Origin: a virus
Virus record (IMG/VR): IMGVR_UViG_3300037584_005429
Location: 19,060 to 83,059 of that record
Length of the DNA stretch: 64,000 nucleotides
Direction: 5' to 3' (one strand)
Positions 1,731 to 56,469 of the stretch are shown piece by piece (within the stretch, counting starts at the first letter, position 1; every line of letters starts with the position of its first letter). A program made the position numbers and the translations under genes. The notes below the pieces were generated by a model that did not search any database, had not been told where the DNA came from, and saw only the letters and a program-made list of their open reading frames with translations.

Positions 1731-2528
1731 TTAATCTGTTAGGTATTCTAATAGTTGGTAGCTATCATTTCTAAGTTTACGTAAGGCTTTTTCTTTTATT
1801 TGTCTAACTCTCTCCTTTGTTAGTGATAGTCCGTCTCCTATTTCTTGTAAAGTCATAGGTGTATTATGTAAACCATAATAATCTATTATTATATTTTTTT
1901 CCCTTTCGTCTAAAACTGACATTAACTTAGTTAGTTCATCTTTTAGATTTACTTCATCAGCAAAAGCATCTTCTGGATTATCAGCATCTTTATTTATAAG
2001 AATATCTATCAAAGTATCACCTTCTTCATTTATTGGTCTATCGTAGTTAATTGTTGTTGGTAACATAGCTAACTTACTATTCAATTTAGTTATTTCTTCA
2101 CTAACTTTTTTCCTTTCTCTATGTAACTCTTGTATAATATTTACTGGTAGTCTTATAGTACGTGCATGTTCATTTAAAGACTGTAGTATTGATTGTTTTA
2201 CCCACCATACCGCGTATGATATAAATCTAAAACCTTTTTCCCATTTAAAGTTATTGATTGCTTTTAAAAGTCCGTAATTACCCTCAGCTATTAAATCCGG
2301 TAAATCCATACCTTGTCCCTGATAGTCTTTAGCTACACTAATAACAAATCTTAGATTACCCTCTAATAATTCTAGATGTACTTTTTCTTTCTCTTGTAGA
2401 GATAGTTCATTATTTAACATCATTTTAGCTAATTCTTTTTCTCTATCCGGTGTTAAAACTTTTCTTTTTCTAACGTCTTTTAGGTATTGGGATATTTCTG
2501 TTTGATTTATGAATGTATTTTTTGACAT
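1731..2528 (-). CDS. Phage-encoded sigma70-family RNA polymerase sigma factor (RpoD/RpoS-like, Bacteroidota-type, no region 1.1)
   Basis: Region 1.2 ISQYLKDVRK; region 2 NLRFVISVAKDYQGQGMDLPDLIAEGNYGLLKA...GFRFISYAVWWVKQSI; region 4 HTH MTLQEIGDGLSLTKERVRQIKEKALRKLR. Confidence 0.95.
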   Translation of the reverse strand: MSKNTFINQTEISQYLKDVRKRKVLTPDREKELAKMMLNNELSLQEKEKVHLELLEGNLRFVISVAKDYQGQGMDLPDLIAEGNYGLLKAINNFKWEKGFRFISYAVWWVKQSILQSLNEHARTIRLPVNIIQELHRERKKVSEEITKLNSKLAMLPTTINYDRPINEEGDTLIDILINKDADNPEDAFADEVNLKDELTKLMSVLDEREKNIIIDYYGLHNTPMTLQEIGDGLSLTKERVRQIKEKALRKLRNDSYQLLEYLTD

Positions 2529-2572
2529 ATAATTACTTTTTATTTATTAAACGTTTATATAGCTATTTTATT

Positions 2573-2614
2573 ACAAATAGTGTACCATTAATTTAGTACT
2601 GACTTTTTGTCAGT
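2573..2614 (-). promoter_or_regulatory. RpoN(sigma54)-like -24/-12 element with an upstream palindromic site
   Basis: The minus strand reads ACTGAC-AAAAA-GTCAGT (2614-2598), then 10 nt, then TGGTAC-ACTAT-TTGT (2587-2573). This has the spacing of TGGCAC-N5-TTGC and ends 44 nt upstream of the sigma ATG. Confidence 0.5.
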
Positions 2615-2631
2615 TCATACTAAATATTGTA

Positions 2632-2639
2632 CAAATATA
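2632..2639 (-). promoter_or_regulatory. Bacteroidota-type -7 box TATATTTG upstream of the sigma gene
   Basis: Exact TAnnTTTG match in the 2529-2679 intergenic region. No clear -33 TTG at the expected spacing. Confidence 0.4.
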
Positions 2640-2679: not shown

Positions 2680-3048
2680 TTAAATTAGATATGGTGTTAA
2701 AACCTTGTTTACATTTTCTGATGTCATAGTATTGATACAATTTCCTTCATCACAATTTACTTTGTCTTGGACTGATGGTATATAGAATGTCTTCCCGTCA
2801 ACACTTTCTACAATCATAACTGGTGTAAACCAGTTAAGTCCATCATTAGTATCTCTTTCCGCGTCTATAAAGTCCCATCTATTAGCAGAATTAATTTTTT
2901 TTTGTTTTTCTGATTCTACTTTAGTGGTTATACTTAGATTGGTGAATGGGATGTTATTTTGTTTAAGTATTTCTTTTAGGGTTTGACAGTCTTCACACAC
3001 ATCTTCTGTGAATAATGATAATTTGTATTCTGCTGTATTAAATTTCAT
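2680..3048 (-). CDS. Glutaredoxin/NrdH-like thioredoxin-fold protein (CEDC)
   Basis: LFTEDVCEDCQTLKEILKQNNIPFT N-terminal CxxC, and the cis-Pro loop-like FTPVMIV. Confidence 0.75.
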   Translation of the reverse strand: MKFNTAEYKLSLFTEDVCEDCQTLKEILKQNNIPFTNLSITTKVESEKQKKINSANRWDFIDAERDTNDGLNWFTPVMIVESVDGKTFYIPSVQDKVNCDEGNCINTMTSENVNKVLTPYLI

Positions 3049-14432: not shown

Positions 14433-16319
14433 TTAAATTTCTTGTCCTGTTATTACTTTCCTAAATAAAGCATCCCCCGCACTTGTTGTCCAAGTAGTGG
14501 AAGCTCCTGAAGCGTAACCAAATCCTCTAGGGTCTGGTGAAAATGATGTCTTAGTTTCTCCTGCAGCACCATAAAACTTAAATTCTGCGTCATCATATAT
14601 TCTATAATAATTTTGTGAAGAAACAGTATTGTACGATACTGAGTCAGTAACAGCCTCTTTATTAAATTTAAATCTAACGGTTACTTTACAAGGTGCTGCA
14701 CTAGGTGAGTTTTGAGAATATACTGTCCATGTTACTGGTATAGATATATTGTAGTGGTTAAGACTGGAACCACTTAACCCACTTCTAAAACCACCACTAT
14801 AGGTGTCTGTTCTCCAAAAATTGTTATTTTGTGATGCTACACCAACGAATATTTCGTCAGCCATTTTCATCATACGTGTACTTAGGGTGTAGTAAGGTTC
14901 AGTTTGTGCAGCAACTCTTCCAGAATCTATACTTATTGCATTATCTTTAGATGGTAAAATACTAAAATAAGGACTAGCTCCTCTTAAACCATTTTGATTT
15001 ATGTTCCAGTTGGATGTGTATTCTAACCCACCAACTAATAATCCAAAAGTATCTGAAGGATGAGTAGTTTTAGTTATATTAATACCTTTAGCTTGTTGTC
15101 CATTTATTTCAATATATTTACCTTCTTCTTGACTTAATCTTTTCATTTTTATTGGGTAGTATGTTGGGGATACGTCATTACCTTTATTGATGTTTAATAC
15201 TAACCTTGCTGTAGGTAATGTGGTTGTGATATTAGCGTATCCCTCATTTTCTAAGTTCTCAGTACCCACACTTGTTTCCATATCCACAGTAGAAACAAAC
15301 CCCATAAAAGTATTTGTGATGTCTATCATGTCAGTTGCCCAACCTGTTTGTTTATTAGACATATCAAATGTTGGGTACGGTGCTACACTACTTTCATCCC
15401 AATTATTTATACCACCACAATTTAAATAACCCATACTAAAAGCTTCGAAACCTATACCTGCAGAACCAGAACCTTTTGTATATCTAGTTCTTTCATTATT
15501 TAATGAAGGTGAAAATACTAAAGAAAATGGAGATGCTACATTTAATCCTTTTAGGTAGGTACCATTAAAATTAATACCCATATTTTCACCCCTAGTCATA
15601 AACGCTCCACCAGCTAAAGCTAAACCATTAAAATAACTATAGTCTTTCATTGGTACTAACTTTACATCTTCACTTCTAAATTCTGCTCCAGTATATACTC
15701 TGACACTATCCCAAAAATCTAAGTATTGACTAATACCGAATTCAGATAAGTCGTTAAGAAAAGAATCATAATCAGAATTAGTTAAAACATTTAAAGTATC
15801 TTTAAAATAATTGTTAAGACTTTCCTCAATAGTTGTTGGGTTGGATGATAGTATGTCTTTATGGTCTGCTATATATTTCGAAGCTAATAATTTATTTAAT
15901 ACAAAATAGTCGTGAAGATACACATCTATTTCTACATTATCTCTATAATATTTAACACTACCATTTGTTGTTTTAACACCTACAGCTACATATGTTGTTT
16001 CATTACCTCTAATGTTAATAGCATTAGTTTCAGGTGTTGCCCATATTATATTTTTTTGTTTATAACCATTGTTAACTTGTTTTCTAAAATTTATTAGATT
16101 ACCTGTAGGGTATGGAATATAGCCTAATTGTGCAGAATCATTAGTCGTAGCGTTAGTATCTGCGTGTTTTTGGGAATTTCTGTAGTCTATGTCAGCATCT
16201 GAAATAGCAAATTTTTCAAATAATGAAGTTAAACTCTTGCTTTCTAAGACCCGTCTACGTCCCTCATCAGTTAATTGTAACTCTAATGTCGTTGTTGTTG
16301 CACTCGTTATATATGCCAT
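14433..16319 (-). CDS. Virion structural protein with an N-terminal 'LTDxGR' fibre-anchor-like motif
   Basis: MAYI...LQLTDEGRRRVL...FAISDADIDYR, paralogous to the N-termini of the two adjacent genes. Confidence 0.65.
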   Translation of the reverse strand: MAYITSATTTTLELQLTDEGRRRVLESKSLTSLFEKFAISDADIDYRNSQKHADTNATTNDSAQLGYIPYPTGNLINFRKQVNNGYKQKNIIWATPETNAINIRGNETTYVAVGVKTTNGSVKYYRDNVEIDVYLHDYFVLNKLLASKYIADHKDILSSNPTTIEESLNNYFKDTLNVLTNSDYDSFLNDLSEFGISQYLDFWDSVRVYTGAEFRSEDVKLVPMKDYSYFNGLALAGGAFMTRGENMGINFNGTYLKGLNVASPFSLVFSPSLNNERTRYTKGSGSAGIGFEAFSMGYLNCGGINNWDESSVAPYPTFDMSNKQTGWATDMIDITNTFMGFVSTVDMETSVGTENLENEGYANITTTLPTARLVLNINKGNDVSPTYYPIKMKRLSQEEGKYIEINGQQAKGINITKTTHPSDTFGLLVGGLEYTSNWNINQNGLRGASPYFSILPSKDNAISIDSGRVAAQTEPYYTLSTRMMKMADEIFVGVASQNNNFWRTDTYSGGFRSGLSGSSLNHYNISIPVTWTVYSQNSPSAAPCKVTVRFKFNKEAVTDSVSYNTVSSQNYYRIYDDAEFKFYGAAGETKTSFSPDPRGFGYASGASTTWTTSAGDALFRKVITGQEI

Positions 16320-32450: not shown

Positions 32451-35400
32451 TTAATTAGGTCCTTGAATAAAAGGGTCAATAGATGATGTCGGTTGTATAG
32501 AGGATGAGGAAGAACTGTTTGCACCACCACAAGGTGTATTAAGACTATTGACACCACAAGGTAACCACATACTATGATAAGTACCATTATTAACTATAAA
32601 TTGTCCACTATTAGGGTCACCAGTACCAGGGTCCATACCTACAATTTGACAAGGTGGTGGCATAGAACCAGATAAATTAGCTGGTTGTAGAGTTGTTCCA
32701 CCTGGAGCAACAGGTTGAGCGGGGTCTTTACATTTATTTAATACTGAATCCCACCCTAATTCACAAGCACAACACCAACAACAATTTTCGTTAATGTTAG
32801 TCGGGTCTACATTATATATACATTCACCTACTTGGAACGGCACACTAGTATATGCTGGATTAATTGATTGGTGTGGAAAGGTTACTGGAGTTGGTGGTAC
32901 ATAACCATTTAATGTTATATTACAGTCTTCACACTCAGTACTCACACTAGGTACACACGGGTCGTTATTAGCATCAACATTACAAGGTAACCACATACCA
33001 CCACCAATATTCTGTCCAACTATACTACTTGGTTCTGGTTGTCCATCTTTACATCGTGCTGGTGCACTCACCGAGAATAATAAACTTTGTAAACTTTCAG
33101 GTGCGTATGGATTTGCTCCTGCTGGACTTGGTCCAGCTGGTACACAACAATAACAACAATCACCATCAGTAGGGTCAAAAACACAATCATTTATATTGTA
33201 TAATGCTGCAGGACTCCAAGGACCCAAATAATTTACAGGACCAGTTAACAAACTACCTAAAGTAACATCACAATCATCACAACCTAAAAGTGGGTCTACA
33301 CAGTCTGCAAGACAGTCTTGAAGAGCTGTTGGACCCGTATATTGTCCCATTCCATTTCCTGGGTCTACACAATTACATGGACCCGGACAATTAACACAAT
33401 CAAAAGTATCTGGTATTGTTGGGTCCTCACAACAATTAAAAGCTTGTTGACAATCTAAAAGACTAGGGTATATACCTGAAGGGTCTGGTGCGCACTGACA
33501 AGGGGGTCTACATATATTACTAGAGGTTACATCTATACACAGATTAGAATTACTACTACAACCCGGAGCGTTGTTACAAGGAGTATTAGGGTCATTAGCT
33601 ATTTTTGAACTTACCGTTAATAAATTAATTAAAAAACCATCAGGTGAATATGCAGGGTTTCCTGCCGCACCTTGAGCTGGATTATAGAGGTCGTTCCATG
33701 TTGGTGGTGTAACACATCCTTGAGCGATATTCCACATAAAATGGTAGTAACTAGGTGTCGTGAAAGACATCATATCTGGATGACTAAATTCTATTTTACT
33801 TTTTTTAAGACGATATGTATTACCAGGACCATTTAAATTTGTTTCTTCAAAACAGCCTGGTGTCAACGCCAATCCAGGATTAGCTCCGTAAGGGTCAACT
33901 TGTGTACCACCTACAAAATTTACCCAATCAGTCTGATATGCTGGCCAATTTGTACCTGGTATACTAGTGCTATTATTAACATTATATCCTGCTGCTCTAT
34001 GTTTTAATAATAATACTTGTAAAGCTGTACCAGCATTAGAATAAAAACCTGCATTTACAATAGCATTAACTTGAGCGTTACTATATCCTAGAGGAAGTAA
34101 TAATGAAGCGTCGGAAGGGTTTACGGTAAATGCGTTTGAATAACTTTGGGTTAGACCAAGTCCATTTGGTTGATTAACATATGGAAGATTAGAACCGACA
34201 CCAATATTCCAACCTGTCCAAGCTGATGATACTGTATTATCACCCTTACATGACCAAGTCTCTGGTATATAACAACATGTAGTAGTATCTGCGGTACACG
34301 AAGCTAAAGTATTATACCCAACAGTAGCATTTGCATCCCAAATACATGGACAAATTCCTGTACCTGGGTCTGGATTTCCTGTGTTACAAACATAATAACC
34401 AGTTGTTGGGGGTTGACAACAAGGATTAGCGTTTGCCGCAATATTACAAGTAAATAAATCGTTATAAATACAATTAGGTCCAGTAACACAAGGTTGGCAA
34501 TAACAAGGAGCTATTGTACAATTACAGTATTCTGGACAACAGTAGTTGTAACCACCCATAGTTCCACCCCAATTTTGTCCACCTTCTGTGTTAGACGCAC
34601 CACAATGAGTCTGCCAAGCTGTAGAGTTTTGTTGGTGTGAATTACCTAAACTTACTCCTGGTACACCTACAGCTGTTGATTGTGCAACCCAATCAGCGTA
34701 AGAAGTTGTAATTATACCCCCTCCAATTGCTGCATCTACTGCTGCATCATTAGGACACCCCCCAAGTGCCAATCCTACGGACCTCCATGAGGTACCAGGT
34801 CCGTTTGGTGTGATACATATTCCAACAACACCGTTCCCTTCAACTTTAATCCCTGTAAATGGTACATTGTGGTATGCTGGATTTGCTGCTATCCACATCA
34901 TATAAAAACTCATGCTGGCCATAGGTAGCGTTGTACCTACACTAATAGCATCAGCATTAGTTAAAAAATAATTTCCGGCCGTGACACAAGAATTTGTTAA
35001 ATTACCACCTTCTATACATTCAAACATAGTTGTTGCTGCTGTGGTAGGGCAAGAAGTGTCACATGGTACCCACATTGGGTACCCACCATTTGTTTGTCCA
35101 CCAGGAAACGTGTTTGGTACATTAGCTGCTAAGAAATTTGAATATTCGTTATACCACTGTGATGGGTTCATACCACTATGTAAAGCTGGGTCATATTGGT
35201 CGTATACCATAACATAACAACAACAAGTGTTTGCTGAATCACAATGTGTTACCACATCCGCTATATTATACATAACACCAGGTGTCCAAGTAGGTGCACT
35301 AATAGTACTACCTACAATTGGAGTTGGGATGTTAACGGAACTTAGTGACCAATTACCACTTGCATCAATTACAGGGAAAGTAACATTACCCGCGGTTAAA

Positions 35401-52587: not shown

Positions 52588-53031
52588 TTATTCACCCACA
52601 ATGAGTGAATAATCTTGGTAGTTAGTAATAACTTTTCTTGTTGACAAAGTGTCAGTTAATTCTCTTAAAATGTAAGAAATTTGTGGTCTAATATCTACGG
52701 TATACCTAACTTTTGGGGGATAGACATCGGCAGATAGGATTCTTTCATATATAGACTTATTTCCTTTTTTTATTGTTATCGTAAAATTTTCATCATCTGG
52801 GTTATTTTGATTTGGATTTTCTCTAAAATTACTATCTAATAAAAATAAAGTTTTTTGTTTTAATTGTTCTTTTATAGTATTTACAATATCTGTCATAGTA
52901 TAATGTAGGTCTAGAGAATTACTAGCCTTATTATTAAAGTTTCTTACTGAAAAGAATCTTTGGCATACAATATTTTTACCTAAAGTTAGTACGAATTCAC
53001 ACTTTTGTGTATTATCATTTTTTTGTTTCAT
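52588..53031 (-). CDS. Hypothetical protein in the replication block
   Basis: 147-aa ORF between the 5'-3' exonuclease and the helicase. Confidence 0.6.
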   Translation of the reverse strand: MKQKNDNTQKCEFVLTLGKNIVCQRFFSVRNFNNKASNSLDLHYTMTDIVNTIKEQLKQKTLFLLDSNFRENPNQNNPDDENFTITIKKGNKSIYERILSADVYPPKVRYTVDIRPQISYILRELTDTLSTRKVITNYQDYSLIVGE

Positions 53032-56438: not shown

Positions 56439-56469
56439 TAAATGTAATAAAGTTAAATGGGTTTGTCAA
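56439..56469 (-). promoter_or_regulatory. Host-type promoter (T)TTGA-N19-TACATTTA upstream of the SSB/RecA operon
   Basis: Third copy of the architecture, 38 nt upstream of the ATG at 56400. Confidence 0.7.

Follow-up and report, generated by a model that had tools for sequence, protein, structure and literature searches.

In the transcription cascade of phage T4, the phage sigma gene is transcribed by the host RNA polymerase, and its product then redirects that polymerase; in T4, as in the Bacillus phage SPO1, it is the host primary sigma factor that drives the phage sigma gene. Promoters of the sigma-54 (RpoN) type conform to the consensus TGGCAC-N5-TTGC, with the GG (-24) and GC (-12) elements 10 nt apart, and proteins of the sigma-70 family are not expected at -24/-12 elements with this fixed 10-nt spacing. 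Sigma-54 promoters need an activator site, and enhancer-binding proteins usually bind ~80 to 150 bp upstream; a site at -45 is unusually close. The pspA/PspF system of E. coli combines a GG/-12 element of fixed spacing with an upstream site that is palindromic; its activator lacks a sensor domain, the AAA+ domain coming first and a Fis-type helix-turn-helix (HTH) domain last.

For the SPO1 cascade, the initial reading of the phage sigma gene by the host RNA polymerase has been described (PMC13401047). On the side of the Bacteroidota, a -24/-12 sigma-54 motif, designated SM4, has been reported in Flavobacterium psychrophilum at the mapped transcription starts of groES-groEL, lon, dnaK, grpE-dnaJ, htpG, and clpB, along with three proteins that contain the sigma-54 interaction domain; the same paper places the Bacteroidota -7 motif at -12 to -5 (PMC9723704). 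A matrix-based survey of predicted sigma-54 regulons in Bacteroidota found chaperone COGs to be enriched, most strongly in Flavobacteriia (PMC12316311). The host side of the present case, a sigma-54 chaperone regulon, is thus already known; the regulator of this heat-shock-like response is left unnamed in the main texts of both papers.

The locus described here is located in a 64,000-nt window (the whole stretch of DNA that was analyzed) of an 83-kb viral contig with a G+C content of ~30%, in which nearly all genes are on the minus strand. The contig encodes a baseplate wedge protein, UvsX-like, SbcCD-like, and DnaB-like proteins, a primase, and a ribonucleotide reductase. Related records are 83 to 211 kb long at estimated (CheckV) completeness levels of 26 to 66%, which makes this a jumbo-phage lineage. 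The window comes from an uncultured ocean phage of this lineage, with Bacteroidota as the probable hosts, judged by gene similarity only. The clues to the host include a phage DnaK that is 64 to 68% identical to the proteins from Flavobacteriales and Cytophagales, a transaminase gene with a 64% match to Flavobacterium phages that represents the sole DNA similarity to known phages, and a -7 box of the Bacteroidota type. The genes and elements under discussion are as follows.

1731 to 2528, minus strand: gene for a sigma-70-family sigma factor, 265 aa (Pfam domains Sigma70_r1_2, r2, and r4; phrog_351)
2559 to 2563, minus strand: predicted start of promoter P2, near 2561, ~12 nt after the -12 T (from sigma-54 promoter geometry)
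2572 to 2587, minus strand: sigma-54-type -24/-12 box TGGTACACTATTTGTA (promoter P2), an exact match, conserved in relatives
2591 to 2625, minus strand: outer imperfect arms ATTTAGTA / TACTAAAT flanking the palindrome, present at no more than chance level
2598 to 2614, no strand assigned: palindrome ACTGAC-AAAAA-GTCAGT, a candidate upstream activator site for the host sigma-54 activator, conserved in 16 loci
2625 to 2629, minus strand: predicted start of promoter P1, near 2627 (from the published placement of the -7 motif)
2632 to 2639, minus strand: -7 box TATATTTG of the Bacteroidota primary sigma factor (promoter P1), kept as TAnnTTTG in 16 of 16 loci
2680 to 3048, minus strand: upstream gene, weakly glutaredoxin-like, 122 aa, whose stop codon bounds the 151-nt gap

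The product of the sigma gene has both regions 2 and 4 in Pfam, which places it in the sigma-70 family. Among the best 25 of 48 NCBIfam matches, it resembles RpoS and RpoD, passing only the superfamily cut-off and staying below the cut-offs of the equivalog models. A possible set of its own target promoters is suggested by TTGAC-N17-20-TAnnnT sites, 5 of which were found within 90 nt upstream of gene starts, against 0.9 expected (window positions 56469, 12810, and 6038 and contig positions 15114 and 8943, minus strand); TAnnTTTG is not enriched in the same space (3 found, 6.3 expected). The gap in front of the sigma gene (2529 to 2679, 151 nt) is among the longest in the contig. An earlier note on this DNA had pointed to a -7 box, a palindrome, and a -24/-12 box in front of a phage sigma gene, and all three are indeed present there, on the minus (coding) strand and in that order, upstream of a genuine member of the sigma-70 family. 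The core of the palindrome, CTGAC-N5-GTCAG, occupies positions 2599 to 2613, and the box TGGTACACTATTTGT (2587 to 2573) begins 10 nt past GTCAGT. The box has T where the -12 element of the consensus has C; the GG, the 10-nt spacing, and the TTG all match. The predicted P2 start would give a 5' untranslated region of ~33 nt.

Taken by themselves, these motifs are not distinctive. TANNTTTG was found in the window 118 times, with 110 expected, which is no enrichment. The exact TGGTAC-N5-TTGT pattern occurs there once (0.26 expected, with at least one copy in 23 of 100 shuffles) and, with up to one mismatch, 13 times (8.07 expected), and CTGAC-N5-GTCAG with up to one mismatch is found twice (0.54 expected). 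Such counts are close to the background, so the case rests on comparison. The second of these palindromes, of the TGACAAAGTGTCA type (52641 to 52655), is located within a 147-aa open reading frame (ORF) with no -24/-12 box after it and is probably a chance occurrence; it lies 80 nt ahead of the start of the DnaB-like helicase gene.

A protein-guided scan of IMG/VR yielded 15 orthologous sigma loci, with 76 to 92% protein identity, which were aligned with the window (16 sequences in total). The three blocks are present in all 15, separated by DNA that has drifted, and it is this conservation across orthologous loci that lifts the motifs above chance. The residues TA..TTTG of the -7 box (TAnnTTTG with variable nn), TGAC and GTC of the palindrome, and GG and TTGTA of the box are invariant in all 16 sequences, and the remaining positions of the palindrome and the box are invariant or nearly so. 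The palindrome block, located 17 to 21 nt past the -7 box, has the form TGAC-N5-GTC(A/G), mostly CTGACAAAAAGTCAG, and the box block can be written as (T/C)GG(T/A)A(C/T)(A/G)CTnnTTGTA. Measured start to start, the palindrome and TGG are 25 nt apart in 13 loci, with values of 24 nt in two others and 26 nt in one; the distance from the -12 T to the ATG is 26 to 45 nt in the relatives. With respect to the primary-sigma promoter, the -7 box is accompanied by a TTG (the -33 element) exactly 20 nt upstream in 13 of the 16 loci; in the exceptions, namely, the window and its two closest relatives (L001 and L002), no such TTG is present ~19 to 21 nt upstream.

Three further contigs, two of them with clearly diverged sigma genes, also keep the palindrome and the box, so that the pair that the earlier note proposed to look for in related phages is retained in all 15 orthologous loci and beyond. 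In the two contigs with diverged sigma genes, no TAnnTTTG box was seen in the 170 nt upstream, and the upstream reading frame apparently extends nearly to the palindrome. The module is missing in four distant phage sigma homologues (30 to 33% identity). In five related phage records, the box is found exactly once before the sigma gene; an extra exact copy in one of them (G001), at the end of a coding frame and without a palindrome, was attributed to chance. The combination of palindrome and box occurs in these five records only before the sigma gene (four records) and before dnaK (two records), the sigma palindrome of the fifth record being the GTCG variant, and the mirror-image control pattern has no matches in them. 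On sequence evidence, then, the combined module is not a general phage promoter.

The same arrangement is found in front of bacterial chaperone genes. With the phage DnaK used as the probe, 80 dnaK loci were retrieved from species genomes (L035 to L114). A TGG-N8-TTG box of the TGGCAY or TGGTAY type is present 42 to 93 nt before dnaK in 47 of the 50 Bacteroidota loci; in other phyla, TGG-N8-TTG is found in 8 of 25 loci, scattered from -135 to -281, and none of these is of the TGGYAY type. The exact TGAC-N5-GTCA palindrome is present within 350 nt upstream of dnaK in 8 of 51 Bacteroidota loci, compared with 0 of 26 others, and, with up to one mismatch allowed, upstream of the box in most Bacteroidota dnaK loci. 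The statement that such a pair precedes chaperone and heat-shock genes in Bacteroidota, which the earlier note had made, proved to be essentially right. The 41 palindrome-to-box distances in host dnaK loci are 15, 25 to 27, 34 to 36, 46 to 47, 58, 68, 76 to 78, 88, and 98 nt. They follow a period of 10.5 bp with a Rayleigh R of 0.86 (0.83 on 33 unique pairs); the corresponding P value is inflated by relatedness among the loci, with nine separate rungs seen. The site before the phage sigma gene (25 nt) stands on the same ladder.

Box and palindrome were also found before host groES. Among 27 Flavobacteriales groES loci, 15 have a relaxed box, compared with 3 of 27 on the reverse strand, and 12 have a palindrome, which is located at 24 to 26, 35 to 37, 46, or 55 to 56 nt in 11 of them and at 77 nt in one. 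The strict form of the box is found in only 5 of the 27, the -12 element being looser there. The strict pattern TGGYAY-N5-TTGCW is mostly intragenic in the two host genomes searched, and the only matches in them that resemble promoters are those before dnaK (both genomes) and groES (G006). A scoring matrix was derived from 40 unique host dnaK boxes, under which the host boxes score from 12.1 to 26.1, with a median of 19.6; the box before the phage sigma gene scores 14.2, toward the bottom of that span, and ranks third in the 83-kb contig. The two higher-scoring sites (15.3 and 16.1) are at window position 34600 (minus strand) and contig position 2914 (plus strand); one falls within a 2,645-aa ORF, and the other is antisense to the genes.

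Phages carry the module before chaperone genes of their own. In the related jumbo-phage records G002 and G003, a box with one mismatch precedes the phage-borne dnaK in the same arrangement (by 60 nt in G002), with TGACAT/ATGTCA half-sites upstream and a palindrome-to-box distance of 57 nt that falls on the 10.5-bp ladder. In the regions concerned (L033:578-4654 in G002 and L034:1420-4782 in G003), the dnaK genes encode proteins of 620 to 623 aa and are divergent from a gene for a ClpB-like AAA+ protein (705 aa in G002), with a glutaredoxin gene and a KTSC-domain gene downstream of dnaK. The intergenic region that lies between the two divergent genes contains several TGACA/TGTCA half-sites plus a sigma-54-type box.

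An exact scan of IMG/VR with the pattern TGAC-N5-GTCA, 8 to 38 nt, GGTAYRCTnnTTG returned 50 loci, of which 34 precede genes for a sigma factor, DnaK, or Hsp20. By downstream gene, they comprise 16 sigma loci (two checked with Pfam and the rest assigned by N-terminal sequence, 13 of them being contigs already among the 15 orthologues), 6 dnaK loci (one checked with Pfam and the rest assigned by the N-terminal GIDLGTTNS signature), 12 hsp20 loci (seven representatives checked with Pfam, all seven positive, and five assigned as near-identical), 5 loci with an EF-hand-like gene, and 11 with other genes or no ORF. In the 34 loci with sigma, dnaK, or hsp20 genes, palindrome and box are 24 to 26, 36, or 46 to 48 nt apart, and the palindrome is duplicated at a distance of 21 nt in several of them. 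With the mirror-image pattern, 20 matches of scattered length were obtained, without clustering at 25 or 46 nt, so that ~20 of the 50 loci could be due to chance, in line with the size of the unexplained remainder.

The phage Hsp20 proteins (L164, L167, L169, L174, L178, L191, L194, and the five near-identical ones) are 113 to 152 aa long; in their modules, the palindrome is at 25, 36, or 46 to 48 nt from the box, and some have two palindromes 21 nt apart. Another group of loci (L176, L182, L202, L203, and L205, and also L170) encodes a protein of 182 to 188 aa with a weak EF-hand match. The gene begins 56 to 74 nt after a TGACTAGTGGTCA or TGACTACTGGTCA palindrome and the TGGTATACTTTTTGA box that follows it at 46 nt, and may be a further member of the regulon.

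Phage and host boxes differ in the base that follows TTG. In the 34 phage modules, it is T in 20, A in 13, G in 1, and never C, compared with C in 18, T in 18, and A in 11 of the 47 host dnaK boxes; even among host boxes of the TGGTAY type, C follows TTG in 5 of 6. The missing -12 C in the phage copies may tune their dependence on the activator.

Five small Flavobacteriales genomes (1.5 to 2.0 Mb) with the module before dnaK were examined as candidate hosts. All five encode rpoN, and each has one sigma-54 (enhancer-binding) activator, except for one genome that has two. In these marine Flavobacteriales, the activator is an AAA+ protein of 387 to 393 aa with the Fis-type HTH domain. In the two activators compared with Pfam (387 to 388 aa), the AAA+ domain begins as early as residue 12, too close to the N terminus for a sensor domain to fit, and the HTH domain is at the end. 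The activator gene is located between a MiaB-like gene and lptE (L152:1468-2634 in G007 and L153:871-2034 in G006), in both of these genomes within ~2 kb of groES. This protein can be predicted to bind the palindrome, an assignment that is circumstantial. No phage-encoded sigma-54 activator was found in the five phage fragments (26 to 66% complete), in which the only hits were cross-matches to ClpB-like proteins.

The combined evidence makes it likely that the 151-nt gap contains tandem promoters, P1 for the primary sigma factor and P2 for sigma-54, the latter with an activator palindrome, in the design used by the host chaperone regulon. As far as can be told from sequence, the design of P2 is the same as that of the dnaK and groES promoters in Flavobacteriales and Cytophagales, including, at the place of the upstream activator site, a conserved candidate palindrome 25 nt before TGG and in phase with the box. 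The earlier note had inferred that the phage sigma gene is wired into an RpoN or stress regulon of the host, and this idea is supported in silico by the orthologous loci, the host dnaK and groES promoters, the published start-site mapping in F. psychrophilum, and the phage dnaK and hsp20 genes.

From these conserved, phased, and shared elements, dependence on sigma-54 and its activator, start sites at the positions listed above, and coupling to host stress can be predicted. Transcription of the sigma gene would be started by the host primary sigma factor at P1. The host sigma-54 activator would occupy the palindrome in the proper helical register and would then trigger the opening of the sigma-54 holoenzyme complex at P2. 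Expressed in this way as part of the host proteostasis (heat-shock-like) regulon, the phage sigma gene would be coregulated with the host chaperones and with the dnaK and hsp20 genes that this and other marine phages carry behind the same module. Features that count against this reading are the center of the palindrome, which would sit near -45; the -12 element, which reads GT rather than the consensus GC; the low matrix score of the box, with its third rank in the contig; and the chance-level motif counts in the window.

The close position of the palindrome is also what gives some credit to the first of the alternatives, according to which the box is a sigma-54 promoter and the palindrome is the operator of a host or phage repressor that shuts P1 ~14 to 30 nt past its start and/or holds P2 until stress. 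The palindrome lies only 17 to 21 nt after the -7 box and 11 to 12 nt before TGG, as is typical of operators; its center, near -45, would be closer than enhancer sites usually are; and in G002 the same half-sites adjoin a divergent primary-sigma-like promoter of the clpB-like gene. However, an activator site is required by sigma-54 promoters, and no second conserved element of this kind was seen upstream. Phasing that persists up to 98 nt and tandem palindromes spaced by 21 nt fit activation from one face of the helix, and the candidate hosts have a single HTH activator (two in one of the five genomes). A repressor operator is accordingly an unlikely, though not a negligible, explanation.

Another alternative places the palindrome at the RNA level, where it would form a hairpin of the P1 transcript and serve as a 5' stabilizer, processing site, or attenuator, the box being part of the same leader. 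A P1 start near 2627 would indeed put the hairpin at the extreme 5' end, long perfect stems are seen in a few relatives (L010), and the folding of the putative P1 leader is modestly more stable than that of its shuffled versions (z = -1.85). The earlier note had nested the palindrome in a longer imperfect hairpin. The arms of that hairpin are present at 2591 to 2625; the structure does not rise above chance. Extended pairing was suggested when 12-nt flanks of a 13-nt core were shuffled; when the full 17-nt palindrome was kept constant and only the outer flanks were shuffled, a fraction of 0.29 of the shuffled sequences folded as well as the window, and the extended hairpin was rejected. Outer-arm pairing is weak in 13 distinct phage sigma loci (Fisher P = 0.008, driven by two loci) and absent in 16 host and other phage copies, dnaK and hsp20 included (P = 0.83). 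An intrinsic terminator was likewise rejected, with no terminator-like sites found and no U-tract. Besides, the palindrome stands at variable, phased distances before genes that have no -7 box in the 170 nt upstream. Its core is conserved in sequence, loop included, without covariation, and the outer arms in the window pair no better than chance. A candidate protein-binding site in double-stranded DNA is thus the preferred reading of the palindrome, and a role as an RNA hairpin appears most improbable.

Equally improbable is a box that merely resembles a sigma-54 promoter and is read by a phage factor, such as the phage sigma in autoregulation: phage boxes do cluster closely around GGTAYRCTnnTTG[T/A], with C invariably missing from -12, and the sigma gene is their commonest carrier (16 of 50), but the same pair with the same phasing precedes host dnaK and groES, the hsp20- and dnaK-bearing contigs, which may themselves encode this sigma, carry the module too, and a sigma-70-family protein is not expected to read a -24/-12 element.

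Under the preferred reading of tandem promoters with an activator-dependent P2, two options are open for the role of P2: it could sense the proteotoxic load during infection, or it could borrow a strong host promoter that survives the shut-off of the primary sigma factor. A more specific scenario can be put forward tentatively. Marine Bacteroidota jumbo phages might have placed their sigma gene in the host sigma-54 proteostasis regulon, so that the sensor-less activator is freed as phage proteins titrate the chaperones, the phage sigma, dnaK, and hsp20 genes are switched on, and infection itself is the signal. If this were the case, the route would stay open despite the shutdown of the primary sigma factor, and the lost -12 C could tune the promoter toward easier firing.

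Literature searches turned up no description of a sigma-54 promoter in front of a phage sigma or chaperone gene, and we could not find in print a phage sigma-70-family gene, dnaK, or hsp20 behind a host-type sigma-54 module. In the main text of a paper on large Bacteroidetes phages with chaperones, the words "promoter" and "sigma" do not occur (PMC9723584). The upstream palindrome, its helical phasing, and phages are likewise absent from the main text of the F. psychrophilum paper (PMC9723704), as are the activator site and phage genes from the main text of the sigma-54 survey (PMC12316311). For the Bacteroidota sigma-54 heat-shock-like response, the comparison offers a sharply defined candidate activator site, TGACA-N3-TGTCA, with a helical phasing rule and a single sensor-less candidate activator. 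The occurrence of host-type regulatory modules before the dnaK and hsp20 genes of marine phages also bears on the control of auxiliary genes.

Among the described systems, the closest are the SM4 promoters of F. psychrophilum, which have the same kind of -24/-12 box before chaperone and protease genes; in that organism, a gene for a sigma-54-dependent regulator and lptE are a few locus tags from groES, a layout shared by G006 and G007 (PMC9723704). Unlike those promoters, which serve host genes, the one described here precedes a phage sigma gene and has T as its -12 base. The predicted regulon of Bacteroidota and Planctomycetota similarly puts COGs of the DnaK, DnaJ, GrpE, GroES/EL, IbpA, and ClpB types under sigma-54, in a survey that, in contrast to the present comparison, covers bacterial genomes only (PMC12316311). 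With the pspA/PspF system of E. coli, the module shares a palindromic upstream site and a sensor-less AAA+ protein with the Fis-type HTH domain as its candidate activator. It differs in that the center of its site would be near -45, whereas the psp sites are ~80 to 130 bp upstream, in that no PspA-like partner has been identified, and in that its regulon consists of chaperones, while psp responds to membrane stress. Finally, textbook phage cascades, such as those of SPO1 and T4, start with the host primary sigma factor. In the arrangement proposed here, an alternative, activator-dependent host sigma factor is added, and a phage sigma gene placed behind a sigma-54 promoter of the host chaperone regulon would follow a different logic, in which the developmental switch of the phage would read the protein-folding stress of its host.
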